Source: Dendrobates tinctorius
Taxonomy: Eukaryota
Assembly (NCBI RefSeq): GCF_039654945.1
Contig: NW_027361797.1
Coordinates: 34,534,001 to 34,598,000 of the forward strand
Length of the DNA: 64,000 nt
Reading direction: 5' to 3'
Shown: piece after piece, positions 2,457 to 48,565 of the stretch
How positions within the stretch are numbered: position 1 is the stretch's first letter
How the letters are laid out: every line of letters begins with the position of its first letter
Program-made: the position numbers and the translations under genes
Notes under the pieces: generated by a model
The model's database searches: none
Told to the model about the DNA's origin: nothing
What the model saw: the letters and a program-made list of their open reading frames with translations, nothing else

Positions 2457-2676
2457 CTGTTGAGGAAAAAAGACGGTCATGTAGAGATGCATCAAGGAAT
2501 AAGCATCCGTTGCTAACGTTTTCAATAATATTATACTTACCACTGCAAAAAAAATTGCTTACAACATAAGTAGCTGACTACTTGTTTTGGGTAAATTCTG
2601 GAAAATCCAAGTATTAGACCCATTGATAGTCCCATTGAATAGCTAAGAGGCTAATCCTAATGCAAATCCTGGTTTG

Positions 2677-11390: not shown

Positions 11391-11494
11391 AAAGTATCAA
11401 AGAGACGTTTCGGGTTATATATATTTTTTTCTACTGGCTAACACGGTACCAAACCACTTTTTTCGTTCTACTTTACAAGAAAAACAGATTTTAA

Positions 11495-19250: not shown

Positions 19251-20184
19251 TGTAACGTCCGTCTGCGGTTCTGGGCTGCAGCCAGGCAACACCCCGAGAA
19301 ACACTGATACCCTTTACCCCTATACAGGGATCTGGATTTACAACAGAGCCCAGGAGGTACTGCCTGAATAGGAGCAGCGGCCAGAGCAGGACGGTCGTCA
19401 GAGTGAAGTACAAAAACGGCAGGCAATAGCAGAGTCAATTTCAGGCCAAGGTCAGAGTCAAAAACCAGGAGGGCGGCAGAGGTACAGAATCATTAGGAAG
19501 TAGCAGAGTCAGAATATCCAGGCCAAGGTCACAAACCAGGAGAGTAGCAGAAGTACAGAATCGTCAGGCAAAAGAGGGGTCAGAAATCCAGGCTGAGGTC
19601 AGAGTCAAAGAGAAATCAATCACTAAGTAACACACAGGGGAACCAAGAATATATCCGGCGGCTTGCAAGACCAGTCCCAAGGTATTTGAGGGATCAGGTC
19701 ATCCCTCACAGGTTCCTGGACTGGTGATGTCATTAGGGCCGCCCCCAGGACCAGGCCAGATGGAGTTGCAGTAACCCCCTGATGACTGACAGAGGGGCAA
19801 AGCCTGCGCCCACCAGATGCCTGCGCAGGAGCCACTTTTCTGTCACCACCATAACTCACGGGCGGACCACGGCGCCTCCCAGCGGCCGAGGCAGGAACAG
19901 CAGTCCCCGAGTCTGACAGTGAAGTGGCGGTCTGGCGCCTCCTAGTGGCCGTGACCGGAACAGCAGGCCTCGAATCCAACGGTGACGTGACAGATCGGCG
20001 CCTCCTAGTGGCTAAAGCTGGGACCATAGGCCCTGAGTCTGACGGCGACGTAATAGAACCACGGCGCCTCCCAGTGGCCGAGGCAGGAACAGCCGTCCCC
20101 GAGTCTGACGGCAAAGTGGCGGCCCGGCGCCTCCTAGTGGCTGCGACCGGAACAGCAGGCCCCAAATCTGACGGAGACGTGACT
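19251..20184 (-). repeat. 3' LTR of nested Gypsy (starts AGTCAC instead of TGTCAC)
   Basis: Direct repeat of 23745-24678; preceded by the PPT. Confidence 0.95.
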
Positions 20185-23100
20185 GTACCCCCCCTTCCAA
20201 GAGGGGCCTCCGGACCCTCAAAACCTGGTTTGTCAGGGTGAAGGAGGTGAAACCTTCTAATTAGTGCTTTTGCATGGATGTCCCGCGCAGGGACCCAGGA
20301 CCTCTCCTCCGGGCCGTAGCCCCTCCAGTGTACCAGATACTGTACGGACCCTCTTACAAGGCGGGAGTCAAGGACACCCTGGACTTCATACTCCAAGGAC
20401 CCTCCGACCGAAACGGGAGGAGGAGGGGACGGGACAGGGTGAATTGAGGAGCGATACAACTTGAGGAGAGACTTGTGGAAGACGTTGGGTTATTTGAAAG
20501 ACTGAGGGAGTTTTAAACGGAAGGCCACCGGGTTAATCACCTCTATAATCTCGTATGGACCAATAAATCTGGGACCCAGTTTGGCAGACGGTACTTTAAG
20601 CTTGATGTTTTTGGTGGAGAGCCAAACCTTGTCTCCAACTCCCAGGTGCGGTCCTTTGGATCGCCGTTTGTTCGCTGCCGAGGTCTGTCTAACCCGGGCC
20701 CCTTTCAAGTTAGAGTTTACCTCAGACCAAATGGTTTTTAAACGATGTATATTTTTCTCTACCCCAGGAAGCTCCGACATTCTGGCCGAGAATGAGCCAA
20801 AGCGCGGATGCAGCCCGTGGTTGCAGAAAAAGGTGGTAGACTTAATGGAGTCCTGATACTGATTATTTAGGGCAAACTCGGCTAGTGGCAGATGTTCTGC
20901 CCAATCGGACTGGTGTTCTGAGACGTAGCAACGAAGGTATTGCTCAAGAGCCTGGTTGACACGTTCGGTTTGACCATTGGTTTCAGGGTGGTAAGCCGAG
21001 GAAAAAGATAGCTCAATACCGATGCGTTTACAGAACGCCCTCCAGAACTTTGACACGAATTGGGTACCCCTGTCAGACACAATATTGACCGGGGCACCGT
21101 GTAAACGTACCACATGTACAATAAACAGTTTACTCAACGTTTCCGAGTTAGGTAACCCCGACAGGGGGACAAAGTGACATTGTTTCCTGAACCTGTCCAC
21201 CACCACCCAGATACACGTCTTTCCATCTGAGGACGGTAGGTCCGTAACGAAGTCCATGGAGATGTGGGTCCATGGACTCTCGGGGATGGGCAAGGACTGG
21301 AGCCAGCCGGCAGGGCGAGTATGGGAGGACTTGGCGCGGGCACAGACCTCACATGCTAAGACATATTCTTTGCAGTCCTTAACCACCGTCGGCCACCAAA
21401 AATTCCTAGTTATCAATCTGGCGGTATTATTGAGACCAGGATGGCCTGTCAAGACAGAGTCATGTGATTCTCTAAGTACTTGTAGTCGAAATGCAGGCGG
21501 AACGAACAATTTGTTGGGTGGCGTAGTGTCAGGGGCTTGTTCTGGGGATTTACGGATCTCCTCCAGAAGGTCCAATGACACTGCGGACACAATGATCCCA
21601 GTGGCCAATATCGGAACTGGTTCACAGTCCTCGGCTTGTGAGGGGCAGAAACTGCGAGAAAGGGCATCGGCACTCACATTTTTTTGTACCAGGGCAGAAG
21701 GTGATTATAAAATTAAACCTAGAGAAAAACAATGCCCACCTTGCTTGTCTAGGATTTAACCTTTTTGCTGATTCTAGGTATGTCAGGTTCTTATGATCGG
21801 TAATTACCGTGATCTTGTGTTTGGCGCCCTCGAGGAAGTGACGCCATTCCTCGAAGGCCCATTTAATTGCTAATAGTTCCCGATTCCCAATATCATAGTT
21901 TTTCTCCGTGGGAGAGAATTTGCGGGAAAAAAACGCACATGGACGAAGCTGAGTGAGGGATGTAGTGCCTTGTGATAGCACTGCTCCCACTCCGACTTCA
22001 GAGGCATCCACCTCCACAATAAATGGACGGTCCAGATCCGGCTGAACCAAAACTGGGTTGGCCACAAAACTCTCTTTTAACGTAGAAAACGCCTGAATTG
22101 CCTCAGGATTCCAGTTGGCCACGTCCGCCCCTTTCCGGGTCAGATCCGTGAGTGGCTTGGCAATCTCTGAGAAACCTCTAATAAACTTGCGGTAATAATT
22201 AGCGAACCCCAAAAATCGCTGCAGTGCTTTCAGCGATTTTGGTTGCACCCAAGCCTTAATAGGCTGGACCTTGGTAGGATCCATGCGGAAGCCTTTACCT
22301 GAAACCATGTATCCTAAAAACTGTACCTCCTCAGCAAAAAAGACACATTTCTCCAGTTTAGCAAACAAGGAGTGTTCACGTAGTCTTTGTAGCACAGAAC
22401 AGACGTGTTGAGAGTGTGTCACAGGGTCAGCAGAGTAAATCAGAATGTCATCTAAATACACCACGACATACACCCCACAAATGTCTCTAAAAATATCATT
22501 AACAAAGTGCTGAAATACGGCAGGTGCGTTGCTGAGTCCGAACGGCATAACCAGGTACTCAAAATGGCCAAGGGGTGTATTAAAGGCCGTTTTCAACTCA
22601 TCTCCCTTTCTTATGCGAACCAGATTATATGCCCCCGGAGGTCAAGTTTAGTAAACCAACGGGCTCCTGTTAGCTGATTAAAAAGATCAGGAATGAGTGG
22701 AAGTGGATACTGGTTTTTTATAGTGATTGCATTCAACTCCCGATAATCAATGCAGGGTCTGAGACCACCATCTTTCTTCTCCACAAAGAAGAACCCGGCC
22801 CCAACTGGAGAAATGGACGGTCTGATAAACCCTTTTCTTAGGCTATCTGCAATATAGTCATTCATGGCCTGACACTCTGGGCCAGAGAGATTAAATATTC
22901 TTCCCTTAGGGAGACGGGCATCCGGAATCAGATCAATAGGGCAATCATACTCTCTGTGAGGGGGTAGCTTTTCAGATTCTACAATAGAAAAGACATCCTC
23001 AAAATCTCTGAAAGCAAACGGTATGTGGGGGGTTTTGACCTTAACTTGGTTTACTGCCAAGGATATGCAATTTTTCTGACACTGTGGGCTCCAGCGTACA

Positions 23101-23576
23101 ACGTCACCCAAGTGCCAGTCGATGACAGGATTGTGCTGGCGTAGCCATGGCATACCCAGAATAACTGCAGAGGTTAAATTGTCCATCACAAAAAATGACA
23201 CCAGCTCAGTGTGTAAGGCTCCCACAGACATAGCAACCTTGGCAGTAACAAACTTAACCCCCTCCTGAATAATGGACGTGCCATTAATAGCCGTGGTTTT
23301 AATAGGGGCATTAAGTTTTAGTAGAGTTACACCCAGATTCCTAGCAGTCAAGGAATCCATAAAATTTCCTTCAGAGCCACTACCCACATACGCGTTTAAA
23401 CACAGCGATTTCTGACCACATGAAACTGAAATGGGTAATAAAACTTTAGCCGCATCTGCGGGCAATACCTGAGCCCCTGGGCAACCATAGCCAGAGTAGT
23501 TGCCCAGAGGTCGACGTGCCAGGAGCATGGATCTCTGAGGTGCAGCTCTCTCCCTGAAGACTCCAGACTTCCGCAT
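20185..23576 (-). pseudogene. Gypsy pol (protease, RT, RNase H, integrase, chromodomain), disrupted
   Basis: [66 protein letters not shown]...YLVHWRGYG.EE.SW. Frameshifts near 22630 and 21680, stop at 20490, protease DSG changed to GSG. Confidence 0.93.
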
Positions 23577-23744
23577 AGTTGTCCAAGAAAATGAGAGAGA
23601 TCTTCCAGGCTGTGCACTGCAACAGGTGTTCAGGCTAAAAATCAGCTCAGTCAGAAGAAGAAAAAAAAAAAAAGTTCAGGGAGACTGCTTTTGTATATGT
23701 TGGGTATATACACAAGAAGCAGTTAATTTTACGGCCGGATATAA

Positions 23745-24678
23745 TGTAACGTCCATCTGCGGTTCTGGGCTGCAGCCAGGCAACACCCCGAGAAACACTG
23801 ATACCCTTTACCCCTATACAGGGATCTGGATTTACAACAGAGCCCAGGAGGTACTGTCTGAATAGGAGCAGCGGCCAGAGCAGGACGGTCGTCAGAGTGA
23901 AGTACAAAAACGGCAGGCAATAGCAGAGTCAATTTCAGGCCAAGGTCAGAGTCAAAAACCAGGAGGGCGGCAGAGGTACAGAATCATTAGGAAGTAGCAG
24001 AGTCAGAATATCCAGGCCAGGGTCACAAACCAGGAGAGTAGCAGAAGTACAGAATCGTCAGGCAAAAGAGGGGTCAGAAATCCAGGCTGAGGTCAGAGTC
24101 AAAGAGAAATCAATCACTAAGTAACACACAGGGGAACCAAGAATATATCCGGCGGCTTGCAAGACCAGTCCCAAGGTATTTGAGGGATTAGGTCATCCCT
24201 CACAGGTTCCTGGACTGGTGATGTCATTAGGGCCGCCCCCAGGACCAGGCCAGATGGAGTTGCAGTAACCCCCTGATGACTGACAGAGGGGCGGAGCCTG
24301 CGCCCACCAGATGCCTGCGCAGGAGCCACTTCTCTGTCACCACCATAACTCACGGGCGGACCACGGCGCCTCCCAGTGGCCGAGGCAGAAACAGCCGTCC
24401 CCGAGTCTGACAGTGAAGTGGTGGTCTGGCGCCTCCTAGTGGCCGTGACCGGAACAGCAGGCCTCGAATCCAACGGTGACGTGACAGACCGGCGCCTCCT
24501 AGTGGCTAAAGCTGGGACCATAGGCCCTGAGTCTGACGGCGACGTAATAGAACCACGGCGCCTCCCAGTGGCCGAGGCAGGAACAGCCGTCCCCGAGTCT
24601 GACGGCGAAGTGGCGGCCCGGCGCCTCCTAGTGGCTGCGACCGGAACAGCAGGCCCCAAATCTGATGGAGACGTGACA
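23745..24678 (-). repeat. 5' LTR of nested Gypsy (TGTCAC...GTTACA) with internal 57/60-bp GC-rich repeats
   Basis: Direct repeat of 19251-20184 with few substitutions. Confidence 0.95.
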
Positions 24679-25674
24679 AGGAGCAGATCAGAGTAATTGC
24701 CAAAGAAACTTAGGTTTTACACTGCCCACAGCAAAAGTGTGTGCAAAACGTTTCTCTCGTTTAGGGCAGACAGAAATAGTATGAGAGGCATCTCCACAGA
24801 AAAAACACAGCTTATTACGCCTTCTAAACTCCTGACGTTGCGCCCTAGACAAAACCCCATCACATTGCATAGGTTCAGACATTTGTTCAAAAGGTGACAG
24901 CGCCTCCCGTGTAGTTTTACATTCACGTAAACGCCGATCAACTTGAATGGCTAATGACATAGAATCATCCAGACCAGAGGGAACAGGAAATCCCACCATA
25001 ACATCTTTTACGGTTTCTGACAAACCCTTCCGAAAGAGAGATGACAATGCACCATCATTCCAGGTAGTAAGGACCGCCCACTTTTGGAATTTTTGACAAT
25101 ATAACTGCAGAATCCTGACCCTGGTTCAATGCCAATAGGCAGGGGTGGGCTGGGCTGGGTGTAAGAGAGGCATTTGCCCCTCGGGCTGGTTAATTAGCGT
25201 CAGACAGGGCCGCGCCACTCACCCGCCCGCCCCGCAGCCACAGCCACAGCCTGTACATTACATGATATAAAACATGGCCGTGGCCCCCAGTACAGGTGGA
25301 GAGGAGAGTGTGAGCGGCGGCCAAACACAGAGCAGAAGACACAGCGCGGTGGTGGTGGGCGGGACTCAGTCACTGCACTGACTGCAGGCTGAGACCGCGT
25401 TGCCGTGGCAGCCGGCGACGCAGTTATTGGAGCAGTAGGTAGCTGGGGGGGCAGAGGGGGCTGTGGCTCACTCACTGTTACATTCTGCGCCTGCCCAGTG
25501 CGGCCACTATAGTCAATCTTTTCTGTGTGCAGCGCACAGGCCCTGTGATGAGGTCACAGGAGGGGAGGAGTCGGGGGTCACATGATCAGGGCCCTCAGTG
25601 TATGCAGGACTCTGCTGTGCTGTTGTCATCGTGCTGGATGAGGGCAAGTGTATGTGTGCAGTCAGGAGGGGTTT

Positions 25675-27024: not shown

Positions 27025-27510
27025 GAATCTTTCTTTTTCTCTCTGTTTCTTTCTCTCTCTCTGTTCTTTCTTTCTCTCTCTAATCTTTCTTTTTTTCTTT
27101 CTCTCTCTGTTCTTTCTTTCCCCTCTTCCTTTCTCTCTCTCTGTTCTTTCTTTCTTTCCCCTCTTTCTCTCTCTAATCTTTCTTTCTCTCTCTAATCTTT
27201 TTTACTCTCTCTCTGTTTCTTTCTTTCTCTCTCTCTGTTCTATCTTTCTTTCTCCTCTTCCGTTCTCTCTCTCTGTTCTTTCTTTCGCTCTGTTCTTTCT
27301 TTCTTTCCCCTCTTTCTTTCTCTCTCTAATCTTTCTTTCTCTGTTCTTTCTTTCTCTCTCTGTTCTCTTTCCCCACTTTTTTCTTTCTCCCTGTTCTTTC
27401 TTTCTTCTCCTTCTCTGTTCTTTCTTTCTCTCTCTGTTCTCTTTCCCCACTTTTTTCTTTCTCCCTGTTCTTTCTTTCTCCTCCTTCTCTGTTCTTTCTT
27501 TCTCTCTCCA
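27025..27510. repeat. Polypyrimidine (CT-rich) compound micro/minisatellite
   Basis: About 480 bp of almost only C/T with recurring CTCTGTTCTTTCTTT units. Confidence 0.95.
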
Positions 27511-27524
27511 CAAAGTAGCACCTA

Positions 27525-28847
27525 CATTTGAAAATGAGTTTTACCATCAAACGACTGGGACTGCGATGGGCTCGAAAGTAGCACCTACGCTTGCGAATCT
27601 TTTTATGGGGGTTTTTGAAGAAATATTTGTTTTTAATGAAATTTGGCAAAAATATATTGTATTTTATAAGAGATTTATTGATGACCTATTTTTTATTTGG
27701 GACAATACAGAAAACAATATTAATGATTTTATCCAACAAATGAACAACAACAATTGGGTATCTCCTTTACTGCTTTTTATGACGTTTTTAGCATTAACTT
27801 TTGAGATGTCACTCTTTTCGTAGAAAATAACAAGATCTGTAGTAAAACCTTGTTTAAGAAAGTTGACTCTAATAGCTATATCCACTTCAGCAGTGCGCAC
27901 TATCCTAAATGGCTGAAAAATATCCCCAACATCAATTTCGCCGTATCAGAAAGAACTGTACCACTGATACTGATTTTAAACACCAGTCTGCTATTCTCAG
28001 AAAAAAATTTTTAACCCAGAAATCTCGCTCACATCTGGTAAAAAAAAGCCTATAAAAATTCTATGAAATTGAAACAGACAGCGCTGTTAGAGAATAATGT
28101 TAAAAATGGTACTGATAATAAATTTTGCATGAATTTTATAACTCAATATAGCAATCAACACACGGAAATCCGCGAGGTCTTACAGAAAAATTGGTACATC
28201 CTACTTGATGACCCTGTCCTCAGTAAAATCCTCCCAAGAAATCCTGGAATAACGTACCGTAGAGCACCTACTATCAGGAGCATTATAGCACCTAGTCGCC
28301 TCAAGCCAGTAACCAACGGCCATGAGAGGCATATTTCAAACACTATTAAAGGGCTTTTAATTGTGGAACTAAGAACTGTTTATGCTGCCTGAGTATTGGG
28401 CATAAGATGATGGATATTATCTCCTTTTCCACTAAAGAGAAATTCAATATACCCTACTTCCTAAACTGTAATTCTAAATTTGTTATTTATATGATAGAAT
28501 GCCCCTGCGGAAAGCAATATGTAGGAAGAACTACACAACAACTTCTTCTCCGTCTGAATTCCCACAGACACAACATAAAAAAAGGTCTTCTTACCCAAGG
28601 TCTTTCGAGACATTATACCTTAGTTCATAATAAAGATTTTAATAAGTTAAAATTTATTCCTATTGATCATATCCCTGCTCATATCCCAAACAGGATTATG
28701 AAATTAAACAGGAAAGAGGTATATTGGATCTATAAATTAAGAAGCCTCAAACCACAGGGTCTTAGTGAGATCACAGAGGTTTTTATTTAATTTATTAATA
28801 GAGTTTGTTATATGTATTTATTTATATTTTTTTAATACTTATGGATG
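27525..28847 (+). mobile_element. Penelope-like element, RT C-terminal half plus GIY-YIG endonuclease (frameshifted); 3' part continues after the LTR insertion
   Basis: FY.Q..GTAMGS.VAP.LANLFM, RFIDDLFFIW, YRRAPTIR, C....VIY.IECPCGKQYVGRT...L..R...H, L.RKE.YWIY.L.SL.P.GL. Confidence 0.9.
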
Positions 28848-30167
28848 TGTGGCGCCCCTGAGGCTCAGTAGCCACAGAGGTTCTGCACCTCCTCCTGAGG
28901 TGTGGTGCCTCACCATCCAGTTAAGTTGGAGGCTCCTGACCACGCTCCAAAATCTGCATCCCACACAACACAGTAGTTCAGCAAAGCCACATTGCGGCTC
29001 CCTGCTTGGAGTGTAGCAGAGCACCTTTGGTGGCTCCCTGCTTGGAACACGAAACGTGCTGGGAGGCGGGTGGAGTTAGAATACATAAAAGAGCGCGAAG
29101 GGTTAGGATTTGAGGTCAGAGTCAGTCGGAGAGTCACTCAGAGAGGAGTGAGGAAAGAGGATCCCTGGGAGAGGGATGGAGGAAGTAGGTGCTGCAGCAG
29201 ACCTCAGTGACCTGGATCTGCTGGCACGGGAAAGGAAAGCAGGAGAAAGACATTGAACTGAAACCTGATCTTCCATGAGGAGGAGAGATTAGTACGGAAC
29301 GAAGGAGTAAAAGAGAACAGAGGACATGGGTTAGAGGAGAACCCTGCCTAGAAGTTCTAAGCGCAAGGCCGGGGCCCGGTCCCCAAGGTTGTATGGATGC
29401 TAATGGTCCTGCAGCAGACACCGGTGGAGTAGTGGGCTGTAAATGCACTACTCCCATCTAAGACTTGGGGGCACAACAGCAACTTGGATAGTGAGCCGGG
29501 ACTCAGGAGTAAGGAGTCCCCGAAGCAGGCTACAGCTGTCTGCCATACAAGTAGAGTTCTTGGGAACATCTGTCAGGAGGCACTCCAGTGTAACACAGTA
29601 CTGGGAGTACTTCACACTTAAAGGCACTATAAGAGGAGACTTCACAAAGGTACATGTTGGCGGAGCGTTGGAAGGGAGCATTCCATCTGGCCTAGAGGTT
29701 GATTGAGCCTCTGACCCGAACAACACAGTACGGAGGCAGGCACCTGTGTGTACTACAGACTGTGAGTAAAGCTTTAGAACTACAAGCCCTAGTGTCCTCC
29801 ATTGATTCTTGCGCCAACACACCCAGCACCGCTACATCTGGGTACCAGCTACTACACCGCTTGTGCCTCTCCTCTACCCCTACGTCTACACTGCCCTGGG
29901 GCTACAGCTTCACCTGTGGGGAGCTTCACCATCTTGGCTGCAACACACCACCAGCCCCAGAGGATCTGCACGCAGCGTCGACTTAACATCTCACTTGCCA
30001 AACACCACAGGTGGCGTCACGAACTATTCCATTAACTACATTCCACCATTCAATCTTCCCCTGTTAATTGGGCGCCCAGGGCCACGGACCTGATCACCGC
30101 TGCTGTGACACATCTTGCCGACACCGGCCCGGTACCGAGTACCCCACAGCCCTGGGAGGGCGACCCA
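28848..30167 (+). repeat. 5' LTR of the CSD-carrying element
   Basis: Direct repeat of 32663-33982 with TG...CA ends. Confidence 0.95.
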
Positions 30168-30173
30168 AATACT

Positions 30174-30191
30174 TGGCGTCACGAAAAGGAT
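30174..30191 (+). promoter_or_regulatory. Primer-binding site complementary to tRNA-Ser 3' end
   Basis: TGGCGTCACGAAAAGGAT versus the complement of a vertebrate tRNA-Ser(CGA) 3' end ATCCTGTTCGTGACGCCA (recalled); one mismatch. Confidence 0.75.
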
Positions 30192-30384
30192 GACTAGACC
30201 TGATGCCATCGGGTTCTGTGTGCCTAAGACTTAAAGTTTTTGAAGATGTGCCGAAGACCCAATTTAATAGACTGTACAATGAACATTAAAAATGGCCGCT
30301 GGCGTGGTGAAGAAGGACGTGATGACATGGGAGGTCCTAAGAAAAGACCGCGAACTGTCCTGGGCCTCCCCTGCCTGAATTACT

Positions 30385-31860
30385 ATGCAACGACAACATG
30401 GTCCACCCCCCGAGGGCTTCGTATACTGGCTTGGTATGGAGGAACTGGAAGAAGACGCCAAGAAGGAGGAGCGGAAGCCAGTGGCTGGAAAAGAGCCGAG
30501 ACAGGAAGAAGAACGCCAGAACGCCATCTTGGAAGGAGAAGGGAGGAGGCCTGCAGAGCGCGAGGAGGTTATGCTGGACCTCCCCGGCGCCATGGCTGAA
30601 GGCTCCAACCCCGTGTCCGAGATGAACCACCAGCAGCTGGAGGACGAAATCGCCCAGCTGACACGCCGACTGCAACTGAGGCAGGAAGCGCTATGGACTT
30701 TGAATCTGCAGCGCGCCCAGGAGGGGCCTACACCTGCGGTACCCGCACCACCGGTACCCGCCGCTGCTGCACCGGAATCTTTCCAGGCAGATCTTGTGGA
30801 GCCTGCAACCGCTGCCATACCACCGGTAGCGAATAGTGTTCCCTCTCTGCCGCTACCACCGGAGGAGTTGTACACGGTCCTGGGAGCCGTAACGGAGGAA
30901 GAGAAGCTCCCGGCCGGACCTGACGCGGCCACGCAGGTCCCTCCAGAGACCCCTGCAGACCCGGAGCCACCATTAGCTCCACTGCCGTTCCCGGTATCCC
31001 ACAGAATGGTACCCGCTGCCACCATGCCTGCATCAGAGCAGAGGCCGCACCACCAGGAGGTCCCAGGTATGTCTGAAGCCCCTACACCTGGGAAGGCCCT
31101 GGGGTGCACCGCGGTCGCGGCGGCCGGCCAGGTCGTGTTGGATCTAGTCTGGGACCGGGATATCTGTCCCTGGGGGGAACCATCTGAACCTCTGACGGTG
31201 GTGCAGCGGTACACCACGAGCCGGGATCGGTCTCGGGAGGAACGAGAAGAAGATGAGAACTCGGCTGGCTGCCAAGTGACCATCCGACAACTGGCAGCTG
31301 AACACCGAGAGAGGGAGCAGCGGAGGTTAGCTGTACTGGGCCCTGATTTGGACCGGAAGGAGCAAGTCCGTGCCGGTCGCTGTGGTCCCCGGGATGCAGC
31401 AGGTTGGGGGCACGTCCTGAATGTAAATCATGAGAGGGGGTTCGACTTTATCCATGACCCTAGCCGAATCTCCGATCTGTTCTTTAATCGGCGGGACGTG
31501 GAACCCCACTTGAGAAAAGGGCACCCTGTCAGAAACCTGCATCCGGGAGATCATGTAACGTTTACCAAACATGAGGGATTGAGAGGCTGGTATGCAATGA
31601 ACATCAGACGGGTCCTGAAGGATCTCATCAAGTCCTGCAGGCAGAAGCCGCCTACTGCCCCTTCATCCCCAGTGACCACTCCAACAGTGTTTGTACCTAC
31701 CCACATGTGCCGAGCTGGATCAGCACCAGTCCCGCAGCCAAGCATACAGAGGATCATGGGTTTGACTCCGATGGAGAAGGGGTACCTGCGGACTGCCAAT
31801 ACCTTTTTCTCCCCTAGAAGCAGTTCCAGTCCAGAAACCCCAGGAGGGGACAACAATTAG
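30385..31860 (+). CDS. 491-aa protein: acidic/coiled-coil N-terminus, Pro/Ala-rich linker, cold-shock domain (about aa 341-410), Pro/Ser/Thr-rich tail
   Basis: Uninterrupted 1476-nt ORF. WGHVLNVNHERGFDFIHDPSRISDLFFNRRDV...LHPGDHVTFTKHEGLRGWYAMNIRRV follows the CSD pattern G.V...N..+GFGFI....D(V/L)F.H.....L..GD.V.F.......G..A.NV. An in-frame upstream ATG at 30292 is cut off by one TGA at 30376. Confidence 0.75.
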   Translation: MQRQHGPPPEGFVYWLGMEELEEDAKKEERKPVAGKEPRQEEERQNAILEGEGRRPAEREEVMLDLPGAMAEGSNPVSEMNHQQLEDEIAQLTRRLQLRQEALWTLNLQRAQEGPTPAVPAPPVPAAAAPESFQADLVEPATAAIPPVANSVPSLPLPPEELYTVLGAVTEEEKLPAGPDAATQVPPETPADPEPPLAPLPFPVSHRMVPAATMPASEQRPHHQEVPGMSEAPTPGKALGCTAVAAAGQVVLDLVWDRDICPWGEPSEPLTVVQRYTTSRDRSREEREEDENSAGCQVTIRQLAAEHREREQRRLAVLGPDLDRKEQVRAGRCGPRDAAGWGHVLNVNHERGFDFIHDPSRISDLFFNRRDVEPHLRKGHPVRNLHPGDHVTFTKHEGLRGWYAMNIRRVLKDLIKSCRQKPPTAPSSPVTTPTVFVPTHMCRAGSAPVPQPSIQRIMGLTPMEKGYLRTANTFFSPRSSSSPETPGGDNN

Positions 31861-32662
31861 TCAAGATGCTTCTTTAAAATAACTCTCGTTACCCAGGAGG
31901 GTATTTGCACCGTTGTGCCTTTTGTTCCTTATTTTGACCATCATGGTTTAGTTTTGTTTTTCCAGTTGTTGCCAAGTTGTATTGGCAGCTTCCCCACTTG
32001 AACTGCAGAGATCATGAACGCTGAATGGTCCAGAACTGTTATTGTACTGTATATAGTTTGCACCTCTTTAGGTGCTCTCTCTCTTGGTTTTACATAGAAC
32101 TCTCTCTTCTTGAAGGAAGAATTTCCTCAGCATAAGGACATTTCCAGACGTGTTGGCCGGACCCATGTCTATTATTGCACTTATTGATAATGGTTAATAT
32201 ATTTTTGAGACAGAAAGCTAGAAAGTGATAATGCTTAATGACAGATTTTATAGTGAATGTTTTACAAATGTCGAAATTTAGTAACGGTATACTAAAGAAA
32301 TGTTGAAGTCCAAATGCCTTGATTGTGAATAAAGAATTGAGGTTACAGGTGATGAACCAGACACCAGCAGTTGTCATATAAGAAAGTAAGAGAATGTGTA
32401 GAGTAACAGAACAGAGATGTGTTGCTAGAAAAAGGTGAATTTATATTGAGTTACTTCCATAGCACTTTAAATTAGGTAGCATAATTTTGAATTTAGATAG
32501 CTAGTTAAAACTGTTTGCAATGTACAAGAAACCGTGCCTCCCACTTTGGGAAGTTTAGTATAAGAAATGTTTATTCAGCATTACAAAAATTTTGTATGTT
32601 CCTGAATTGTCAACTTTGTTTGCCTTGCAGCCCGCGGACATGCTGTGTTTAACAGGGGGGTA

Positions 32663-33982
32663 TGTGGCGCCCCTGAGGCTCAGTAGCCACAGAGGTTCTG
32701 CACCTCCTCCTGAGGTGTGGTGCCTCACCATCCATGTAAATTGGAGGCTCCTGACCACGCTCCAACATCTGCATCCCACACAACACAGTAGTTCAGCAAA
32801 GCCACATTGCGGCTCCCTGCTTGGAGTGTAGCAGAGCACCTTTGGTGGCTCCCTGCTTGGAACACGAAACGTGCTGGGAGGCGGGTGGAGTTAGATTACA
32901 TAAAAGAGCGGGAAGGGTTAGGATTTGAGGTCAGAGTCAGTCGAAGAGTCACTCAGAGAGGAGTGAGGAAACAAGATCCCTGGGAGAGGGATGGAGGAAG
33001 TAGGTGCTGCAGCAGACCTCAGTGACCTGGGTCTGCTGGCTCGGGAAAGGAAAGAAGGAGAAAGACATTGAACTGAAACCTGATCTTCCATGAGGAGGAG
33101 AGATTAGTACGGAACAAAGGAGTAAAAGGGAACAGAGGACGTGGGTTAGAGGAGAACCCTGCCTAGAAGTTCTAAGCGCAAGGCCGGGGCCCGGTCCCCA
33201 AGGTTGTATGGATGCTAATGGTCCTGCAGCAGACACCGGTGGAGTAGTGGGCTGTAAATGCACGTCTCCCATCTAAGACTTGGGGGCACAACAGCAACTT
33301 GGATAGTGATCCGGGACTCAGGAGTAAGGAGTCCCCGAAGCAGGCTACAGCTGTCTGCCGTACAAGTAGAGTTCTTGGGAACATCTGTTAGGAGGCACTC
33401 CAGTGTAACTCAGTACTAGGAGTACTTCACACTTAAAGGCGCTATAAGAGGAGACTTCAGAAAGGTACATGTTGGTGGAGCGTTGGAAGGGAGCATTCCA
33501 TATGGCCTGGAGGTTGATTGAGCCTCTGACCTGGAGGACACAGTACGGAGGCAGGCACCTGTGTGTACTACAGACTGTGAGTAAAGCTTTGGAACTACAA
33601 GCCCTGGTGTCCTCCATTGATTCTTGCGCCAACGCACCCGGCACTGCTACATCTGGGTACCAGCTACTACACCGCTTGTGCCTCTCCTCTACCCCTACAT
33701 CTACACTGCCCTGGGGCTACAGCTTCACCTGCGGGGAGCTTCACCATCTTGGCTGCAACACACCATCAGCCCCAGAGGATCTGCATGCAGCGTCGGCCTA
33801 ACATCTCACTTGCCGAACACCACATGTGTCGTCACGAACTATTCCATTAACTACATTCCACCATTCAATCTTCCCCTGTTAATTGGGCGCCCAGGGCCAC
33901 GGACCGGTTCACCGCTGCTGTGACACATCCCGCCGACACCGGCCCGGTACCGAGTACCCCACAGCCCTGGGAGGGCGACCCA
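32663..33982 (+). repeat. 3' LTR of the CSD-carrying element
   Basis: Direct repeat of 28848-30167. Confidence 0.95.
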
Positions 33983-34455
33983 GATGTCTTTTAATATTTA
34001 TTTTTCTGTGGGAGTTTTTAAAGAATTTCACCATAAAATACCTGATGGGTTGATTATTTAATTGTTACAAAAGATCTTATTCATGTTTTATAAGGGAAGT
34101 ATTTTTAATGTGCTTTTATTATATTTATTTCCATCATACTCCTTTATGTCTAGTAAGCCTTTTAAATTTAGAGACTTATTAACTATTAGTGCTCCACAGT
34201 AATAGGAATAAACCGATGGTGCTGCGGTTAGAAAATCAGGTGAGTAACCTAGACCCTGTTTTGTTTTGTTTTTTCTTTCAATTTTTTATATTCTATCTCC
34301 ACTCAGAGAAATAGTAGTTCTACAGAGCATTAACTCCTCTCCTCTTTCTTGACTTGTCTTTGGCCCCAGTAAAATAAATACTGTTATATTTATTTTTATT
34401 TTATTTTTTTTTTAAGTTTGTTAATAATATTCCTCTCAGAAATAATTGTACATAA

Positions 34456-34857
34456 GGCCTCTTTCACACTTCAGTTTTTACAATCAGTCACAATCCGCCA
34501 GGTTTTGAAAAAAACAGATCCTCAATTTTCTTTTGAGGATCCGTTTTTTTTCCCCATTGACTTGCATTAATGGCGGATTGTGACGGATTGCTGTCCGTTG
34601 CATCCGTTTTTTGTGAGGATCCGCCAAAAGTTGCCGTCCGTCTCCATCCTCAAAGATTTCAAAACGGAGCTTGCAACGTTTTATTCTCTGGCGGATCCTC
34701 CAGACACTGATTTAACCCGAAATTCTTTCTGGGTGCCGGACAAAATCAATCAATCTCTCTCTCTCTCTCTCTCTCTCATCAGTTCAGAACGGATCCCCTT
34801 GTCTGACTTTTTGGCGGATTTGAACTGATTCTAAAAAACTGAAGTGTGAAAGAGGCC
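34456..34857. mobile_element. PIF/Harbinger-type MITE
   Basis: TIR GGCCTCTTTCACACTTCAGTTTTTA / TAAAAACTGAAGTGTGAAAGAGGCC with TAA TSD on both sides. Confidence 0.88.
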
Positions 34858-35702
34858 TAACCAATCATTCCTTTGTCCTAAAGAAATCATCCTCTGACAT
34901 GATTTGCTGTCCTCAGGTGGTGTTAATAACGCTGCTGAAGGAGTGATTTTGTTTTTAAACTTTGGTATGTGACTTATACTAGCACTGGTCGCTGTATAAT
35001 TTGACTCTGTGCTGGAGCTTTTAACAGCCATGTGGTATTTGGAGAAGCGCTGTGTGCTCCTCCTTTGGTCCGATCCTGAAGGTGTATGCAATATTGCAGG
35101 TGTGGAGGACATTGTCCTTCCCACTCTGCCACTGAGCTTTGGAAGATGACTGATTCCCCCTCTTTTTTTTTCCTTTTCCCTTTATTCTAGTTCATCATTA
35201 AATAGGAATAATAAGCCGAACCTAAGTTTTTAAAAAAATATATATTCTATATTTTTTATTAATAAAACATTTATTTTTAATTCATTAAAATTTAGATCCC
35301 TACAATTTAATTTTTAACTAATGGTTTATTTCAACATATGTCTCTTCCACATTGGATATACTTGCAGGAACCTGTTACCGTAGCCGAGTGGTCTGATTGT
35401 CGGGCAGCAGATCTGGAGGAAGCTGAGGCATATCTCTAGGAGTTTCGTGTTTGAGATTTGCTTTTCTTGCTCAGCATATATGTGTTTTTTAATTTTACTT
35501 ATATATATTTTTTTTTCCTTTTGTTCAACAACCTGTGAAATTAAAATACACATGTCAATATAAGAACACTTTCTAACTATTACTATGAATTTTTATACTG
35601 TCTGCTAACTATGAACTTTGACTTCTGTCATCTGACTGTTTGGAGCTCATTTTTTTTAAATCTGTGTGTACTTAATGCACCACCTATGTATGCTTCATCT
35701 GG

Positions 35703-40959: not shown

Positions 40960-42589
40960 CAGTACAGACCAAAAGTTTGGACACACCTTCTCATTCAAAG
41001 AGTTTTCTTTATTTTCATGACTATGAAAATTGTAGATTCATTCTGAAGGCATCAAAACTATGAATTAACACATGTGGAATTATATAATTAACAATAAAGT
41101 GTGACACATCTGAAAATATGTCTTATATTCTAGGTTCTTCAAAGTAGCCACCTTTTGCTTTGATTACTGCTTTGCACACTCTTGGCATTCTGTTGATGAG
41201 CTTCAAGAGGTAGTCACCGGAAATGGTTTTCACTTTACAGGTATGCCCTGTCAGGTTTAATAAGTAGGATCTCTTGCCTTATAAATGGGGTTGGGACCAT
41301 CAGTTGTGTTGTGCGGAAGTCTGGTGGATACACAGCTGATAGTTCTACTGAATAGACTGTTAGAATTTATATTATGGCAAGAAAAAAGCAGCTGAGTAAA
41401 GAAAAACGAGTGGCCATCATTACTTTAAGAAATGAAGGTAAGTCAGTCCAAAAAATTGGGAAAACTTTGAAAGTGTCCCCAAGTGCAGTGGCAAAAACTA
41501 TCAAGCGCTACAAAGAAACTGGCTCACATGAGGACCGCCCCAGGAAAGGAAGCCCAAGAGTCACCTCTGCTGCAGAGGATAAGTTCATCCGATTCACAAG
41601 CCTCAGAAATTGCAGGTTAACAGCAGCTCAGATTAGAGACCAGGTCAATGCCACACAACAGAGTTCTAGCAGCAGACACATCTCTACAACAACTGTTAAG
41701 AGGAGACTTTGTGCAGCAGGCCTTCATGGTAAAACAGCTGCTAGGAAACCACTGCTAAGGACAGGCAACAAGCAGAAGAGACTCGTTTGGGCTAAAGAAG
41801 ACAAGGAATGGACATTAGACCAGTGGAAATCTGTGCTTTGGTCTGATGAGTCCAAATTTGAGATCTTTGGTTCCAACCACCGTGTCTTTTTGCGACGCAG
41901 AAAAGGTGAACGGATGGACTCTACATGCCTGGTTCCCACCGTGAAGCATGGAGGAGGAGGTGTGATGGTGTGGGGGGTGCTTTGCTGGTGACACTGTTGG
42001 GGATTTATTCAAAATTGCAGGCATACTGAACCAGCATGGCTACCACAGCATCTTGCAGCGGCATACTATTCCATCCGGTTTGCGTTTAGTTGGACCATCA
42101 TTTATTTTTCAACAGGACAATGACCCCAAACACACCTCCAGGCTGTGTAAGGGCTATTTGACCAAGAAGGAGAGTGATGGGGTGCTACGCCAGACGACCT
42201 TGCCTCCACAGTCACCAGACCTGAACCCAATCAAGATGGTTTGGGGTGAGCTGGACCGCAGAGTGAAGGCAAAGGGGCCAACAAGTGCTAAGCATCTCTG
42301 GGAACGCCTTCAAGACTGTTGGAAGACCATTTCCCGGTGACTACCTCTTGAAGCTCATCAAGAGAATGCCAAGAGTGTGCAAAGCAGTAATCAAAGCAAA
42401 AGGTGGCTACTTTGAAGAACCTAGAATATAAGACATATTTTCAGTTGTTTCTTCTTTTTTGCTAATTATATAATTCCACATGTGTTAATTCATAGTTTTG
42501 ATGCCTTCAGAGTGAATCTACAATTTTCATAGCCATGAAAATAAAGAAACTCTTTGAATGAGGTGTGTCCAAACTTTTGGTCTGTACTG
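40960..42589 (+). mobile_element. Full-length Tc1 transposon (Passport/PPTN-like) with ~200-bp TIRs and TA TSD
   Basis: CAGTACAGACCAAAAGTTTGGACACACC...GGTGTGTCCAAACTTTTGGTCTGTACTG flanked by TA; 1630 bp. Confidence 0.95.
41374..42432 (+). pseudogene. Tc1 DD34E transposase, inactivated
   Basis: Paired-like HTH, WSDESKF, KHGGG.VMVWG, FQQDNDPKH, SPDLNPI. +1 frameshifts in the G-run (about 41975) and near 42335; catalytic E changed to K (NPIK). Confidence 0.93.
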
Positions 42590-44370: not shown

Positions 44371-47300
44371 AATAATAATAATAATCTTTATTTATATAGC
44401 GCCAACATATTCCGCAGCGCTTTACAGTTGAACAGTTTCAAACACAACAGTCATAAGTAACAACGTTAACAATACAATAATTAAAGCGAAATAAGACGAC
44501 CCTGCTCGTGGAGCTTACAATCTACAATGAGGTGGGGGGGATACAAAGCACAGGTTTGTATTTACAATGATGTATTTACAATGACGGTCCAGCCATCTTC
44601 AGGGGGTGGGGGTTAGATGGAGATAGTGAATGGGCTACACACACACAAACATGACTTTGATTACTGAATGTGATAGGCCGCTCTGAACAAATGTGTTTTG
44701 AGCGAGCGCCTAAAACTATGCAAATTGTGGATGGTCCTAATATTTTGGGGTAGAGCATTCCAGAGGATTGGCGCAGCACGGGAGAAGTCTTGGAGTCGGG
44801 AGTGGGAGGTATGGATTAGGGCAGAGGTTAGTCGAAAGTCATTTGCAGAGCGCAGCGGTCGGTTAGGCCGATAGACAGAAATGAGGGAGGAGATGTAAGG
44901 GGGTGCCGCACTGTGGAGAGCTTTGTGGGTGAGAACAAGTACTTTGAATTGTACCCTGTAATGAATTGGCAGCCAGTGTAACGACTGGCGAAGAGCGGAC
45001 GCGTCTGAGAAACGATTAGCCAGATGGACAACCCTGGCTGCTGCATTAAGGATAGACTGGAGAGGGGAGAGTCGAGTGAGAGGGAGGCCAATTAATAGAG
45101 CATTACAGTAGTCTAGGCGGGAGTGGATCAGGGCGACAGTGAGAGTTTTTGTTGTTTCCATGGTGAGAAAAGGGCGGATTCTAGAGATGTTCTTTAGGTG
45201 TAAGCGGCATGAGCGGGCAAGAGATTGTATATGGGAGGTGAAGGAGAGATCGGAGTCGAACATAACACCCAGACAGCGCACCTGCTGTCGGGGTGTTATT
45301 ATGGTGCCACCCACAGAGAGGGAAATGTCAGATTTAGGGAGGTTAGTAGATGGTGGGAGCAGAAGAAGTTCAGTTTTGGAGAGGTTGAGTTTCAGATAGA
45401 GAGCAGACATGATGTTGGAGACTGCAGACAGACAGTCAGTGGCGTTCTGTAGTACAGCGGAGGTAAGGTCAGGGGATGATGTGTACAGTTGTGTGTCATC
45501 AGCATAAAGATGGTACTGAAAGCCAAATCTGCTGATGGTCTGTCCAATTGGGGCTGTATAGAGAGAGAAGAGAAGGGGGCCAAGGACTGAGCCCTGAGGT
45601 ACCCCAACAGTGAGAGGAAGAGGAGATGAAGTGGAGCCAGAAAACAGAACACTGAAGGAGCGGTCGGAAAGATAGGAGGAGAACCAGGAAAGAGCAGTGT
45701 CCTTAATGCCTAGTGACTGGAGCCTAGAGAGTAGGAGAGGATGGCCAACAGTGTCGAAAGCTGCAGAAAGGTCGAGAAGAATGAGCAGAGAATGGTCACC
45801 ATTACGTTTTGCTGTCAGAAGGTCATTGGTCACTTTGATGAGTGCAGTTTCTGTCGACTGTAGGGGGCGGAAACCGGACTGTGAAGGGTCTAGGAGGGAG
45901 TGAGTGGAGAGGTAACGGGTAAGGCGTGAGTATATCAGGTGCTCCAAGAGTTTAGAGATGAAGGGGAGATTGGAGACTGGTCTGTAGTTGTTTGTGCAGG
46001 ATGGGTCAAGGGTGGGTTTCTTTAGTAATGGAGTAATGATAGAGTGTTTGAAGGAGGAGGGGAAAATGCCAGAGGAGAGGGAGAGATTAAAGATTGTAGT
46101 TAGGTGAGTTGTGACGACTGGGGAGAGAGACTGGAGGAGATGTGAGGGAATGGGGTCGGTTGTGCATGTAGTTAGAAGAGGAGAGGAGCCTGGAGACTTC
46201 TTCTTCTGTGATGGGAGCAAATGTGGAGAGTGAGCCAGGGGAAATGCAGGGAGGGATGGGAGTCACTGAACTTGGTGATTGGGAGCGGATTTCCTGACGG
46301 ATATTGTCTATTTTCTCTATAAAGTGGGAGGCCAGGTCATCAGCGCAAATGTCTGTGATAGGGGCTTGTGCTTTTGGCCTGAGGAGGGAGTGAAAGGTGT
46401 CAAAAAGTTTCTTGGGGTTGTTGGATAGTGAGGAGATCAGGGTGGTGAAGTAGGTCTTTGGCGAGGTGAAGGGCAGAGTTATATGTCCTTAACATAAATT
46501 TGAAGTGTATGAAGTCTTCTGGTGTGTGTGTTTTCCTCCATAAGCGTTCAGCACACCTAGAGCATCGCTGGAGAAATCGGGTTTGCGATGTGAGCCAGGG
46601 CTGTTTCACTCTGTGTTTGGAGGTTCTGAGGGTGAGGGGAGCTACTTGGTCAAGGGTGCTTCTAAGAGTGTCATTGAAGTGATGTACAGCCAGATCAGGA
46701 CAGGACAAAGAAGAGATTGGGGACAATGATGAGTGTAGGGAGTCTGAAAGTGTATGAGGGTTAATGGCTTGTAGATTTCTGACTGAATGGTAGGTAGGAG
46801 GGTGCTGGGGTGAGCGAGGATTTGTGAGTGTAAAGGAGAGAATGTTGTGGTCAGAGAGGGGAAGCGGTGAGTTATCTAGGTAGGAGATTGAGCAGAGCCG
46901 GGCGAAAACCAGGTCCAGGGTGTTACCGTCTTTGTGTGTTTCAGAGGTTGAGAGCTGAGAGAAGCCTAGAGAAGTGGTTAGTGATAGAAGCTGGGATGCA
47001 GATGTGGAAGTGGGGCTGTTAATGGGGATGTTGAAGTCTCCCAGGATAAGGGTTGGTAGTTCTGAGGACATGAAGTGCGGCAGCCAGGCAGAGAAATGGT
47101 CCAGGAAGTGGGTGGGTGAGCCTGGGGGCCGGTATATGACCGCTACTCTGAGGGAGAGGGGACGAAAGAGCCTGATGGTGTGGACTTCAAAAGAAGGGAA
47201 TGAGAGTGATGGAACTGAGGGGATGACCTGGAAAGTGCATTGTGGGGACAGGAGTATGCCGACTCCACCACCAGGTCTATTTGTCGGTCTCGGGGAATGG

Positions 47301-47880
47301 GAGAATTGTAAGCCAACATGGGAAATGGCAGCAGGAGAGACAGTGTCAGAATCCTGAATCCAGGTTTCCGTGAGGGCCAACAAATTCAGAGAGTTTTTCA
47401 GAAAGTAATTGTGTAGGAAAGGAAGCTTGTTGCATACAGACCGTGGATTCCAAAGGGCACAATTGAAAGAAGGAGATGAAGGAGTGCAAGTGATATTAGT
47501 AAGATTATTAAGGTTTCGATGTGAGGTAGGGTAGGGGTTGAGGTTGGGGGATGGTGGACCGGGGTTGGGGGAGATGTCCCCTGAAATCAGTAGGAGCAGG
47601 AAGATAAAGAGCAAGTAGTTTTTGGAATTGTATGAAGATTTTATGTGCAGTGTGTTTGGGCAAGATGGGCTGAGGCTTTTTAAGAAGGTGAGAAGTGCAT
47701 GGGAGCTGTACATGGGAGAAGCAAAGAGAGAGGAGCTGATGTATATGAGTCGTGATGGAGGGGGGATTGGTCGGTGAAAGTGGATCGCAAGAGAACATAG
47801 GAGGATAGGAATAAAGCACATGGTTAAAAGGGACAGCAGAGTGAGGGTTACCTGACTCCTGTCCTGACTAACTGCCATGT
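44371..47880 (-). mobile_element. L2 LINE with essentially complete APE-RT ORF (two frameshifts, near 46450 and 46190)
   Basis: APE motifs LWN.RS, LALTETW, GGGVG, IYRPP, LGDFN, TH..GNTLDL, SDH; RT motifs as in the other L2; 3' tail TGTAAAGCGCTGCGGAATATGTTGGCGCTATATAAATAAAG(ATT)n. Confidence 0.96.
47555..47599 (-). other. 2A-like (StopGo) peptide LLLLISGDISPNPGP at the N-terminus of the L2 ORF
   Basis: Hydrophobic run plus GD(V/I).xNPGP directly upstream of the APE domain. Confidence 0.75.
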
Positions 47881-48565
47881 AATAACTGCTGTATCCCGAC
47901 GCTTATCTTCGTGACGCTTTGCTTCTGTGATGCGTGCACCCCTATGGATGGTTCTAAATTTATAGTCCAGACTGCAGGGTCTGAAGAGATGGATTGTGGG
48001 AACTGGTTGAGGATAATTTGGCAGCTGGGGTCAGCACACCAGGGTTTTTTTTTTTTTTGTTTTTTTTTTGGGATGATCAAAGACATTCAGCCTGGCAACA
48101 TCTATTTTAACACCTCCACCAGATAAGATCTACACTGATCCCAGTCATGGAAATGCAACAGTGAGTTTTAAGTACAATGCACCAAATGATTTATAACAAA
48201 GAATTAGCAGACACATTAAACTATGTTTCTAGATGGTAAAGCAGCAGATGACACAGCAGACAGCAAGCAGAGGGAATTTTTACCATTAGAGTCTATTGCA
48301 GCAGATGAGACAGCAATCAGAGGTGGGAAGTTGTACCATGCTACATGACTATTATGCTTTAGTAATATCTTCACTTGGCACACATTTTCTATATATACAG
48401 TACATGCTATCCTCCAGGTTCGCCCACCCATGGTTCCATTTGTGGTGTTTTAGAAAAATATATACTGTATTTTGATAGTCTCTATTTTTATATTACCTGA
48501 ATAAAGTGTATTTGCCTTTTATTCTTGGTTTTCAAGGTTCCTTTTTTTTGGTCTATACTCTAAGT

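Follow-up and report, generated by a model that had tools for sequence, protein, structure and literature searches.

Non-autonomous LTR elements are usually viewed as bare sets of cis signals, so what would such an element do with a gene of its own? The question is raised by an LTR element at positions 28848–33982 of a 64,000-nucleotide stretch of DNA from the frog Dendrobates tinctorius (the window). A first-pass annotation, made from the sequence alone, described it as a complete element without gag or pol that carries a cold-shock domain (CSD) gene, and proposed that it belongs to a non-autonomous family that is mobilised in trans and keeps its own CSD protein. This proposal is supported by the other copies in the genome, by a gag-pol partner and by selection on the reading frame, as set out below.

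Structure of the element and of its protein

The annotated cis signals are all present (Table 1): two 1320-bp LTRs with TG..CA ends, a 4-bp target-site duplication (TSD; GATG at both flanks), a primer-binding site (PBS), a polypurine tract (PPT) just before the 3' LTR, and an AT-rich 3' untranslated region (GC = 37%). The LTRs align without gaps and are identical at 1271 of 1320 positions (96.3%; K2P 0.038). The PBS is putatively of the tRNA-Ser type. The T-loop plus PBS complement has 138 matches in the genome, and no tRNA was called at such loci by ARAGORN (none at 2/2 loci) or by Rfam (none at 2/2).

The annotation had also reported one long open reading frame (ORF) in the interior, extended to 522 aa if the TGA at 30376 was a decayed CGA. 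The first part stands, as there is a single long plus-strand frame at 30379–31860 (493 codons from stop to stop), and the second does not. The stop at 30376 is common to the family (of 55 other copies, 46 have TGA here and 5 have TAA). It lies in another frame, one that evolves neutrally (dN/dS about 1), which rules out a 522-aa read-through ORF. The N-terminus of the family ORF runs instead in the frame of the window ORF at 30228–30599, from an ATG at 30246. Relative to 48 of the 55 copies, the window copy is frameshifted shortly after this N-terminal part; judged from its sequence, this private frameshift leaves it dead for the full protein. The family protein has about 540 aa and comprises a strongly basic N-terminus (22 K+R per 90 residues, in NLS-like runs), a likely coiled coil, a disordered linker and the CSD.

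Table 1. Features in and around the LTR element (window coordinates).
Feature	Position	Strand	Remark
Left TSD, GATG	28844–28847	.	sequence
5' LTR, 1320 bp, TG..CA	28848–30167	+	
TATA-like ATAAAA in 5' LTR	29085	+	inferred
LTR segment common to gag-pol partner	29371–29604	+	87%
AGTAAA, possible poly(A) signal in 5' LTR	29765	+	inferred
LTR 3' segment common to gag-pol partner	29882–30167	+	85%
Second PBS-like 12-mer inside LTR 3' segment	30012	+	
PBS	30174–30191	+	one mismatch vs family motif
Basic N-terminus of family ORF	30246–30435	+	frame of window ORF 30228–30599
Frameshift private to window copy	30436–30480	+	
Heptad-like helical segment	30619–30720	+	dN/dS 0.25; probable coiled coil
Pro/Ala/Ser/Thr-rich linker	30721–31068	+	
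Module switch point	31070	+	15/32 CSD-less copies
Charged helix-like segment ahead of CSD	31249–31398	+	dN/dS 0.21
CSD, five-strand OB fold	31408–31611	+	dN/dS about 0.08
AT-rich 3' untranslated region	31861–32650	+	
PPT	32651–32660	+	
3' LTR, 1320 bp	32663–33982	+	96.3% identity to 5' LTR
Right TSD, GATG	33983–33986	.	sequence

Pfam, AlphaFold and Foldseek agree with the annotation on the CSD. PF00313 is the sole Pfam match of the window frame (residues 344–411, E = 3e-5), and the search returned no capsid or CCHC motif. The score against the curated cut-off of 27 bits is 24.2 bits on the whole window frame, 28.1 bits for the excised domain and 30.5 bits in family copy L036. AlphaFold predicts five strands (pLDDT 84.9), and the best Foldseek matches of the predicted domain are CspA, YBX1 and YBX2 (probability 1.0).

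Single-sequence protein searches with queries of 269–858 aa gave no match, unlike profile searches, which recovered relatives that lack annotation from five species of dendrobatoid frog. Similar short LTR elements without pol contain diverged CSDs of at least five lineages, several of them older, and the CSD is kept across lineages that are just 21–57% identical. Lineage D matches YBX1 without gaps (E = 1e-13) and has YBX1/2 as nearest relative; for lineage B the closest relative is a tie, and for lineage C a bacterial Csp matches best. A sequence search for the closest relative of the window-lineage CSD gave no significant match, and trees of the CSDs did not place the donor. We consider a Y-box (YBX) origin of the window-lineage CSD likely.

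The family, its gag-pol partner and its C-terminal modules

Sequence comparison identifies the window element as one copy in a high-copy, dispersed non-autonomous LTR family. A first look at the genome gave 3907 CSD candidates (all 150 of those scored were 85–100% identical), and exact matches to the LTR end plus PBS number 2405, with 0 in the control. We estimate that there are several thousand copies. Among 21 two-ended copies, 14 have an exact 4-bp TSD and 0 have a 5-bp one. Contigs from three putative RNA runs of one study contain short family-like pieces over the LTR and interior, which show neither level nor strand.

When 70 PBS sites were sampled, 50 proved to be family copies and the other 20 belonged to an autonomous Ty3/Gypsy partner whose LTR ends and PBS are those of the family, as the annotation had envisaged. 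The partner encodes a PNMA capsid, reverse transcriptase (RT), RNase H and integrase, in the order gag, RT, RH, IN; it shares the PPT type of the family, and two LTR blocks are 85–87% alike. Its TSD is exact in one of three automatically called copies. The shared ends and PBS make mobilisation of the family in trans by this partner likely. In comparison with 4/4 partner interiors, homology is limited to about 60 nt at the start of the interior, and therefore the family is no deletion derivative of the partner. No CSD was found in 11 partner loci and 30 other PNMA loci, in a search that recovered 3/3 positive controls. The dominant PNMA-gag family was rejected as the helper, having no LTR, PBS or ORF similarity in 30/30 loci (about 3.5 kb). 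Partner Gag modelled together with the N-terminal part of the family protein gave a complex score of 0.03.

The CSD is absent from 32 of the 50 family copies. Most of these bear another module in its place, a finding that the annotation did not anticipate, which has no match in Pfam and is itself under selection (0.38–0.41), and 15 of the 32 change over at a single point. Splicing at a donor-like site (31068) does not account for the CSD-less copies, which retain the site and carry other coding sequence. Since 15 copies switch to a module that is likewise selected, the CSD is dispensable; with at least one other C-terminal module able to stand in for it, it would be an optional advantage and not a requirement.

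Selection and the probable role of the protein

A first dN/dS set had been chosen partly on CSD score, so we repeated the analysis with copies picked by PBS. The main set holds 18 sequences, 17 chosen by PBS alone plus the window copy (L293 was left out because of an insertion). Over the CSD, pN is 0.134 and pS 0.68, a ratio of 0.20 (0.15–0.25; JC 0.08), far below the value near 1 that the annotation had named as speaking against its proposal; the other two frames give 1.3 and 2.5. Synonymous divergence is saturated while dN is low. This pattern indicates that the ORF has been under purifying selection during the spread of the family. Singleton variants in the CSD have a ratio of 0.71 (1.04 in a 56-copy set) and include stops, and variants present in at least three copies have a ratio of 0.11 (0.14 in the 56-copy set), calculated without correction for recombination between subfamilies, and include none. 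Constraint on shared but not private variants is a signature ascribed to cis-acting gene products in PMC9073684, which also states that cis-targeting lacks experimental evidence in the case of Ty1. Near-neutral private variants together with a shared ratio of 0.11 thus point to a cis-acting protein.

The reading that we favour, and think moderately probable, is that the window element is a dead copy from a family that borrows the capsid, RT and integrase of a helper, and whose own protein was selected for what is likely cis binding of RNA. Selection would have retained the protein because its likely target is the RNA that encodes it. A helper Ty3/Gypsy element would supply its proteins to the family RNA, the CSD would bind that RNA during its translation, and the helical part would oligomerise the protein; the resulting RNP may be steadier than naked RNA, or may reach helper particles better. 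L1 ORF1p similarly serves its own RNA, a cis preference.

A few master loci could instead supply the protein in trans, or it could serve the host or helper; selection would then reflect those masters, with the remaining copies riding free. Only 1/18 of the unbiased CSD set is open from the start through the CSD, CSD-less subfamilies are equally abundant, and a few masters, each the sole active one in its cell, would yield the same variant spectrum; but the frame is kept in many subfamilies that are 10–30% apart, the replacement module is also selected, which free riders would not need, and no one locus stood out as conserved and host-like. We therefore regard action in trans as unlikely. Slightly less likely, in our judgement, is that the CSD fold is now a protein-protein module, which might, for instance, counter a silencing or restriction factor. 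The base-stacking residues given for YB-1 in PMC7226217 are W65, F74, F85 and H87; the equivalent of W65 is Asn in 18/18 copies and that of H87 in 17/18, and the CSD can be swapped for a module without a Pfam match. The other two stacking residues speak for nucleic acid binding, with F74 invariant in 24/24 aligned rows over all CSD lineages and F85 aromatic in 23/24, as do N67 and D83, which do not vary within family A, and an additional W/Y on the last strand. CSDs bind ssDNA too, and this and the NLS-like basic N-terminus would suit a role in the nucleus, where the protein would act on the locus of its element or on the transcript as it is made (in transcription, export or escape from silencing), in place of packaging or storage. 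Re-import into the nucleus would cost the cis preference that the variant spectrum suggests, and we give this role a lower probability again. That the ORF is an inert relic, whether a fragment captured from the host or a deletion derivative of a gag-pol element, accords with the broken state of most copies and nothing else, and it is refuted by low dN against saturated synonymous divergence, by the variant spectrum and by an interior without partner homology.

Beyond the cis reading, we offer a wider scenario only tentatively: dendrobatoid frogs may be home to 'satellite' LTR elements of an old radiation, which took a Y-box CSD from the host and made of it a protein protecting or packaging RNA in cis. 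These parasites would out-compete their helper, by 50 to 20 of the 70 sampled sites, and the C-terminal module would be exchanged between lineages as a cassette in the course of an arms race. A family without gag or pol that maintains a predicted host-type RNA-binding domain at a dN/dS near 0.1 shows that such parasites can bear a selected protein of their own, and offers a clean system for an open question: do the proteins of LTR elements work in cis and, if so, by what means? A set of CSD genes listed as 'uncharacterized' in the annotations of poison frogs would also be explained as transposon ORFs, and the family points to a class of element that RT-based surveys of giant genomes overlook and that here makes up about 40 Mb by rough estimate.

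Comparison with known systems

The annotation knew of no comparable architecture, and in the papers searched we found neither this architecture nor a catalogue entry for the family. TRIM, LARD, TR-GAG and MaLR elements need a helper with which they have LTR ends, PBS and PPT in common; TRIM and LARD are non-coding, and the ORFs of TR-GAG and MaLR are gag-derived. The helper dependence is alike here, but the ORF is unrelated to the helper gag and strongly selected. The Xenopus elements 1A11 and Xretpos(L) (PMC4585706) are likewise single-ORF LTR elements of anurans, and are expressed in embryos; 1A11 is described there with a Gag-like ORF in tens of ORF copies, and the account of it that we compared does not mention a CSD. 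Unlike this gag-only type (1A11, TR-GAG), the family ORF has no capsid or CCHC match. With YBX1 and YBX2 (FRGY2) the family shares the CSD fold and a long beta3-beta4 loop (PMC7226217), whereas its CSD lies near the C-terminus behind the coiled coil and linker, has lost W65 and H87, and is not followed by a Y-box C-terminal domain. L1 ORF1p resembles the family protein as a working model, with a basic N-terminus, a coiled coil, an RNA-binding domain and its own RNA as target; it differs in having no homology, an RRM in place of the CSD, and a non-LTR, autonomous element as its carrier. He et al. 2025 (PMC12287698) report that bird endogenous retroviruses (46 ERVs) captured CSDs several times, and argue for adaptation. 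There too PF00313 lies inside LTR retroelements. Those are retroviruses identified by their RT, for which the passages compared here mention neither a test of selection nor an example from amphibians, whereas the frog CSD gene is the sole gene of a non-autonomous element with a Ty3/Gypsy helper, in thousands of copies and with measured selection. With the frog elements, the convergent capture of CSDs would reach beyond the retroviruses of birds to Ty3/Gypsy satellites in amphibians.

Structure and coding capacity of the window element

The window contains an LTR element that carries a cold-shock domain (CSD) gene, and this combination is a real feature. We confirmed the first-pass annotation of paired TG..CA LTRs, which align without gaps and match at 1271 of 1320 positions, a target-site duplication (TSD), a primer-binding site (PBS) and a purine tract. 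The CSD recognised at that stage also stood up to closer analysis, because in addition to its PF00313 match it has a five-stranded AlphaFold2 model (pLDDT 84.9, from a 24-row alignment) for which the top Foldseek ranks are CspA, CspB/E, YBX1 and YBX2.

Features of the CSD-carrying element and its relatives (window positions unless a locus is named)
Feature	Position	Strand	Detail
LTR element	28848-33982		two 1320-bp LTRs, TG..CA termini
TSD			GATG flanking the element on both sides
Primer site	30174		
Purine tract			upstream of 3' LTR
Long frame	30379-31860		single Pfam match, PF00313
PF00313 (CSD)	31408-31611		24.2 bits in whole frame, 28.1 when cut out (cut-off 27)
Replacement C-terminal module	L281:1545-2783	-	plus 14 more loci

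The earlier proposal of a 522-residue ORF, obtained by restoring the stop at 30376, fails. This stop is present in 51 of 55 other family copies (TGA in 46, TAA in 5), and the frame containing it has dN/dS of about 1, compared with 0.4-0.7 for the frame from the ATG at 30246. The 522-residue product is ruled out as the family protein; the family frame starts at ATG 30246, and copies without breaks encode about 510-540 residues. The window copy carries a private frameshift: its length within 30436-30480 is unlike that of 48 of the 55 copies. Each LTR also contains a second PBS-like 12-mer (30012-30023 and 33827-33838, about 155 bp before the LTR end), which resembles a motif in the LTR of the gag-pol partner described below and is possibly a relic of LTR extension.

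Directly before the element is a decayed Penelope-like element (27026-28790) with a reverse transcriptase (RT) motif and a GIY-YIG domain (PF01541, E 6e-6). Other transposon debris (19623-24716, 9644-11437, 44661-47902, 41356-41991 and 2661-3458) was labelled from translations as chromodomain-type Gypsy, L2/CR1-like LINEs, Tc1-like transposase and another Penelope piece, and a small element at 34455-34858 has perfect 25-nt terminal inverted repeats. A 20-mer resembling a tRNA 3' end (loci L301-L304) has 138 copies, many ~130 kb apart; no tRNA was called at the loci examined (ARAGORN, 2 of 2; Rfam, 2 of 2).

Family size and the gag-pol partner

By searching the species' own 6.36-Gb genome with the CSD we found 3907 first-look candidates, of which 150 were scored and every one proved 85-100% identical. 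The LTR-end plus PBS pattern gave 2405 matches (control, 0), so the element belongs to a multi-copy family. Since an exact fit to this pattern holds for just 8 of 37 junctions at loci picked by their CSD, the total is roughly 11,000 junctions. We sampled 70 of 100 listed PBS sites in two batches, 30 from the top of the list and then another 40. Eight near-periodic repeats on C5 were left out, 10 sites offered no more than 1.5 kb, and locus L084 duplicates L122. The sample comprised 20 gag-pol partners, 18 family members with a CSD and 32 without, which extrapolates to an estimated total of some 8,000 family copies, around 2,900 of them with a CSD. The TSD is an exact 4-mer in 14 of the 21 copies having both ends, and a 5-mer in none of the 21. 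Tandem elements with one common LTR (LTR-interior-LTR-interior-LTR) occur at L031, L035, L040 and L165.

The autonomous partner has the same LTR termini and primer site as the family, a similar purine tract, and LTRs of ~1 kb with two blocks 85-87% alike. It codes for a PNMA-type capsid, RT, RNase H and integrase in Ty3/Gypsy order; its zinc knuckle match is below cut-off, and its TSD is exact in 1 of 3 copies by automatic calls. From these sequences we infer that the partner mobilises the family. The family is no deletion derivative of this partner, an alternative raised at the first pass: only the first ~60 nt of the interior is common to the partner and the window element (4 of 4 partner interiors), and a multi-lineage CSD profile had no match in any of 11 partner loci or 30 further PNMA loci (3 of 3 controls positive). 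Therefore, the family ORF is not a leftover of this partner.

Selection, module exchange and a proposed role

We measured selection in the window copy and 17 CSD copies selected solely by their primer site. The CSD has pN/pS 0.20 (0.15-0.25; JC ratio 0.08, with pS near saturation), far below 1, and its off-frames give 1.3 and 2.5. For the other segments the JC ratios are 0.21 (helix preceding the CSD), 0.25 (heptad segment), 0.54 (N-terminus) and 0.62 (linker). Private CSD variants, stops included, are near neutral (0.71; 1.04 in a 56-copy set that is partly CSD-picked), and variants present in at least three copies are constrained (0.11; 0.14 in the larger set). Of the 18 CSD copies in the unbiased set, just one has a frame open from the start through the CSD.

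According to PMC9073684, this pattern is expected solely under cis-acting gene products, and Ty1 cis-targeting is unproven. We lean modestly towards a model in which the protein would bind the RNA encoding it and then oligomerise, making the bound RNA more likely to survive and enter the helper's particles. One rival is that the protein acts in trans from a few masters; a small number of master loci, if only one were active at any time, could produce a similar variant pattern.

The CSD is optional, because most CSD-less copies carry in its place another module under selection (dN/dS 0.38-0.41 in 15 copies; 1792 first-look candidates in the genome; no Pfam match). Fifteen of the 32 CSD-less copies diverge from the window sequence at one point, 31070, and 10, a third type, near interior nt 372-400; 25 of 28 middle segments fall in one similarity cluster. 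The core common to the family is the N-terminus plus heptad segment.

Binding surface, origin and known CSD elements

We used YB-1, as described in PMC7226217, as the reference for the binding surface. N67, F74, D83 and F85 (YB-1 numbering) do not vary across the 18 family rows, and F74 is conserved in 24 of 24 rows spanning all lineages. The W65 and H87 positions are Asn in the family (18 of 18 and 17 of 18 copies), which makes canonical Y-box binding doubtful; altered binding is plausible. Other readings give the CSD a protein-binding role or the protein a nuclear one.

Using PF00313 and diverged members as queries, we found at least five CSD lineages with 21-65% mutual identity. Where both LTRs are visible, interiors are about 2-2.5 kb long, and the few pol matches among 20 loci appeared as separate nested pieces. 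Short LTR elements with diverged CSDs (L241, L246, L248, L254, L255 and L164) have different LTRs, two primer-site types and no pol within the same LTR pair. Among the best 150 matches listed in profile searches, a list crowded with multi-CSD proteins and silent on species outside it, are unannotated relatives in Ranitomeya imitator, R. variabilis, Dendrobates tinctorius, Phyllobates terribilis and Anomaloglossus baeobatrachus. Protein P0001, annotated in R. imitator, joins one such CSD to an astacin/CUB protease, a fusion that probably arose when the gene model took in an element.

Sequence searches gave no significant relative for the window lineage. Of the diverged lineages, D matches YBX1 most closely (E 1e-13, gap-free; 4.7e-7), B has a tie for closest relative, and C scores highest with bacterial Csps. 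A joint profile ranks YBX1 first by a small margin. A quickly built tree places the element CSDs in one group with weak support (82), separate from the Y-box and bacterial rows. A Y-box origin of the long-loop lineages is moderately likely.

In the literature searched, with subscription journals, Repbase and Dfam outside its scope, we found no description of a CSD in any LTR element that is non-autonomous or comes from an amphibian, and the word 'cold' is absent from PMC4131045 and PMC12822217. The 1A11 element is Gag-like, according to PMC4585706. CSDs are carried by 46 bird ERVs, which captured them repeatedly, according to PMC12287698, whose supplements may list structures close to the window element.
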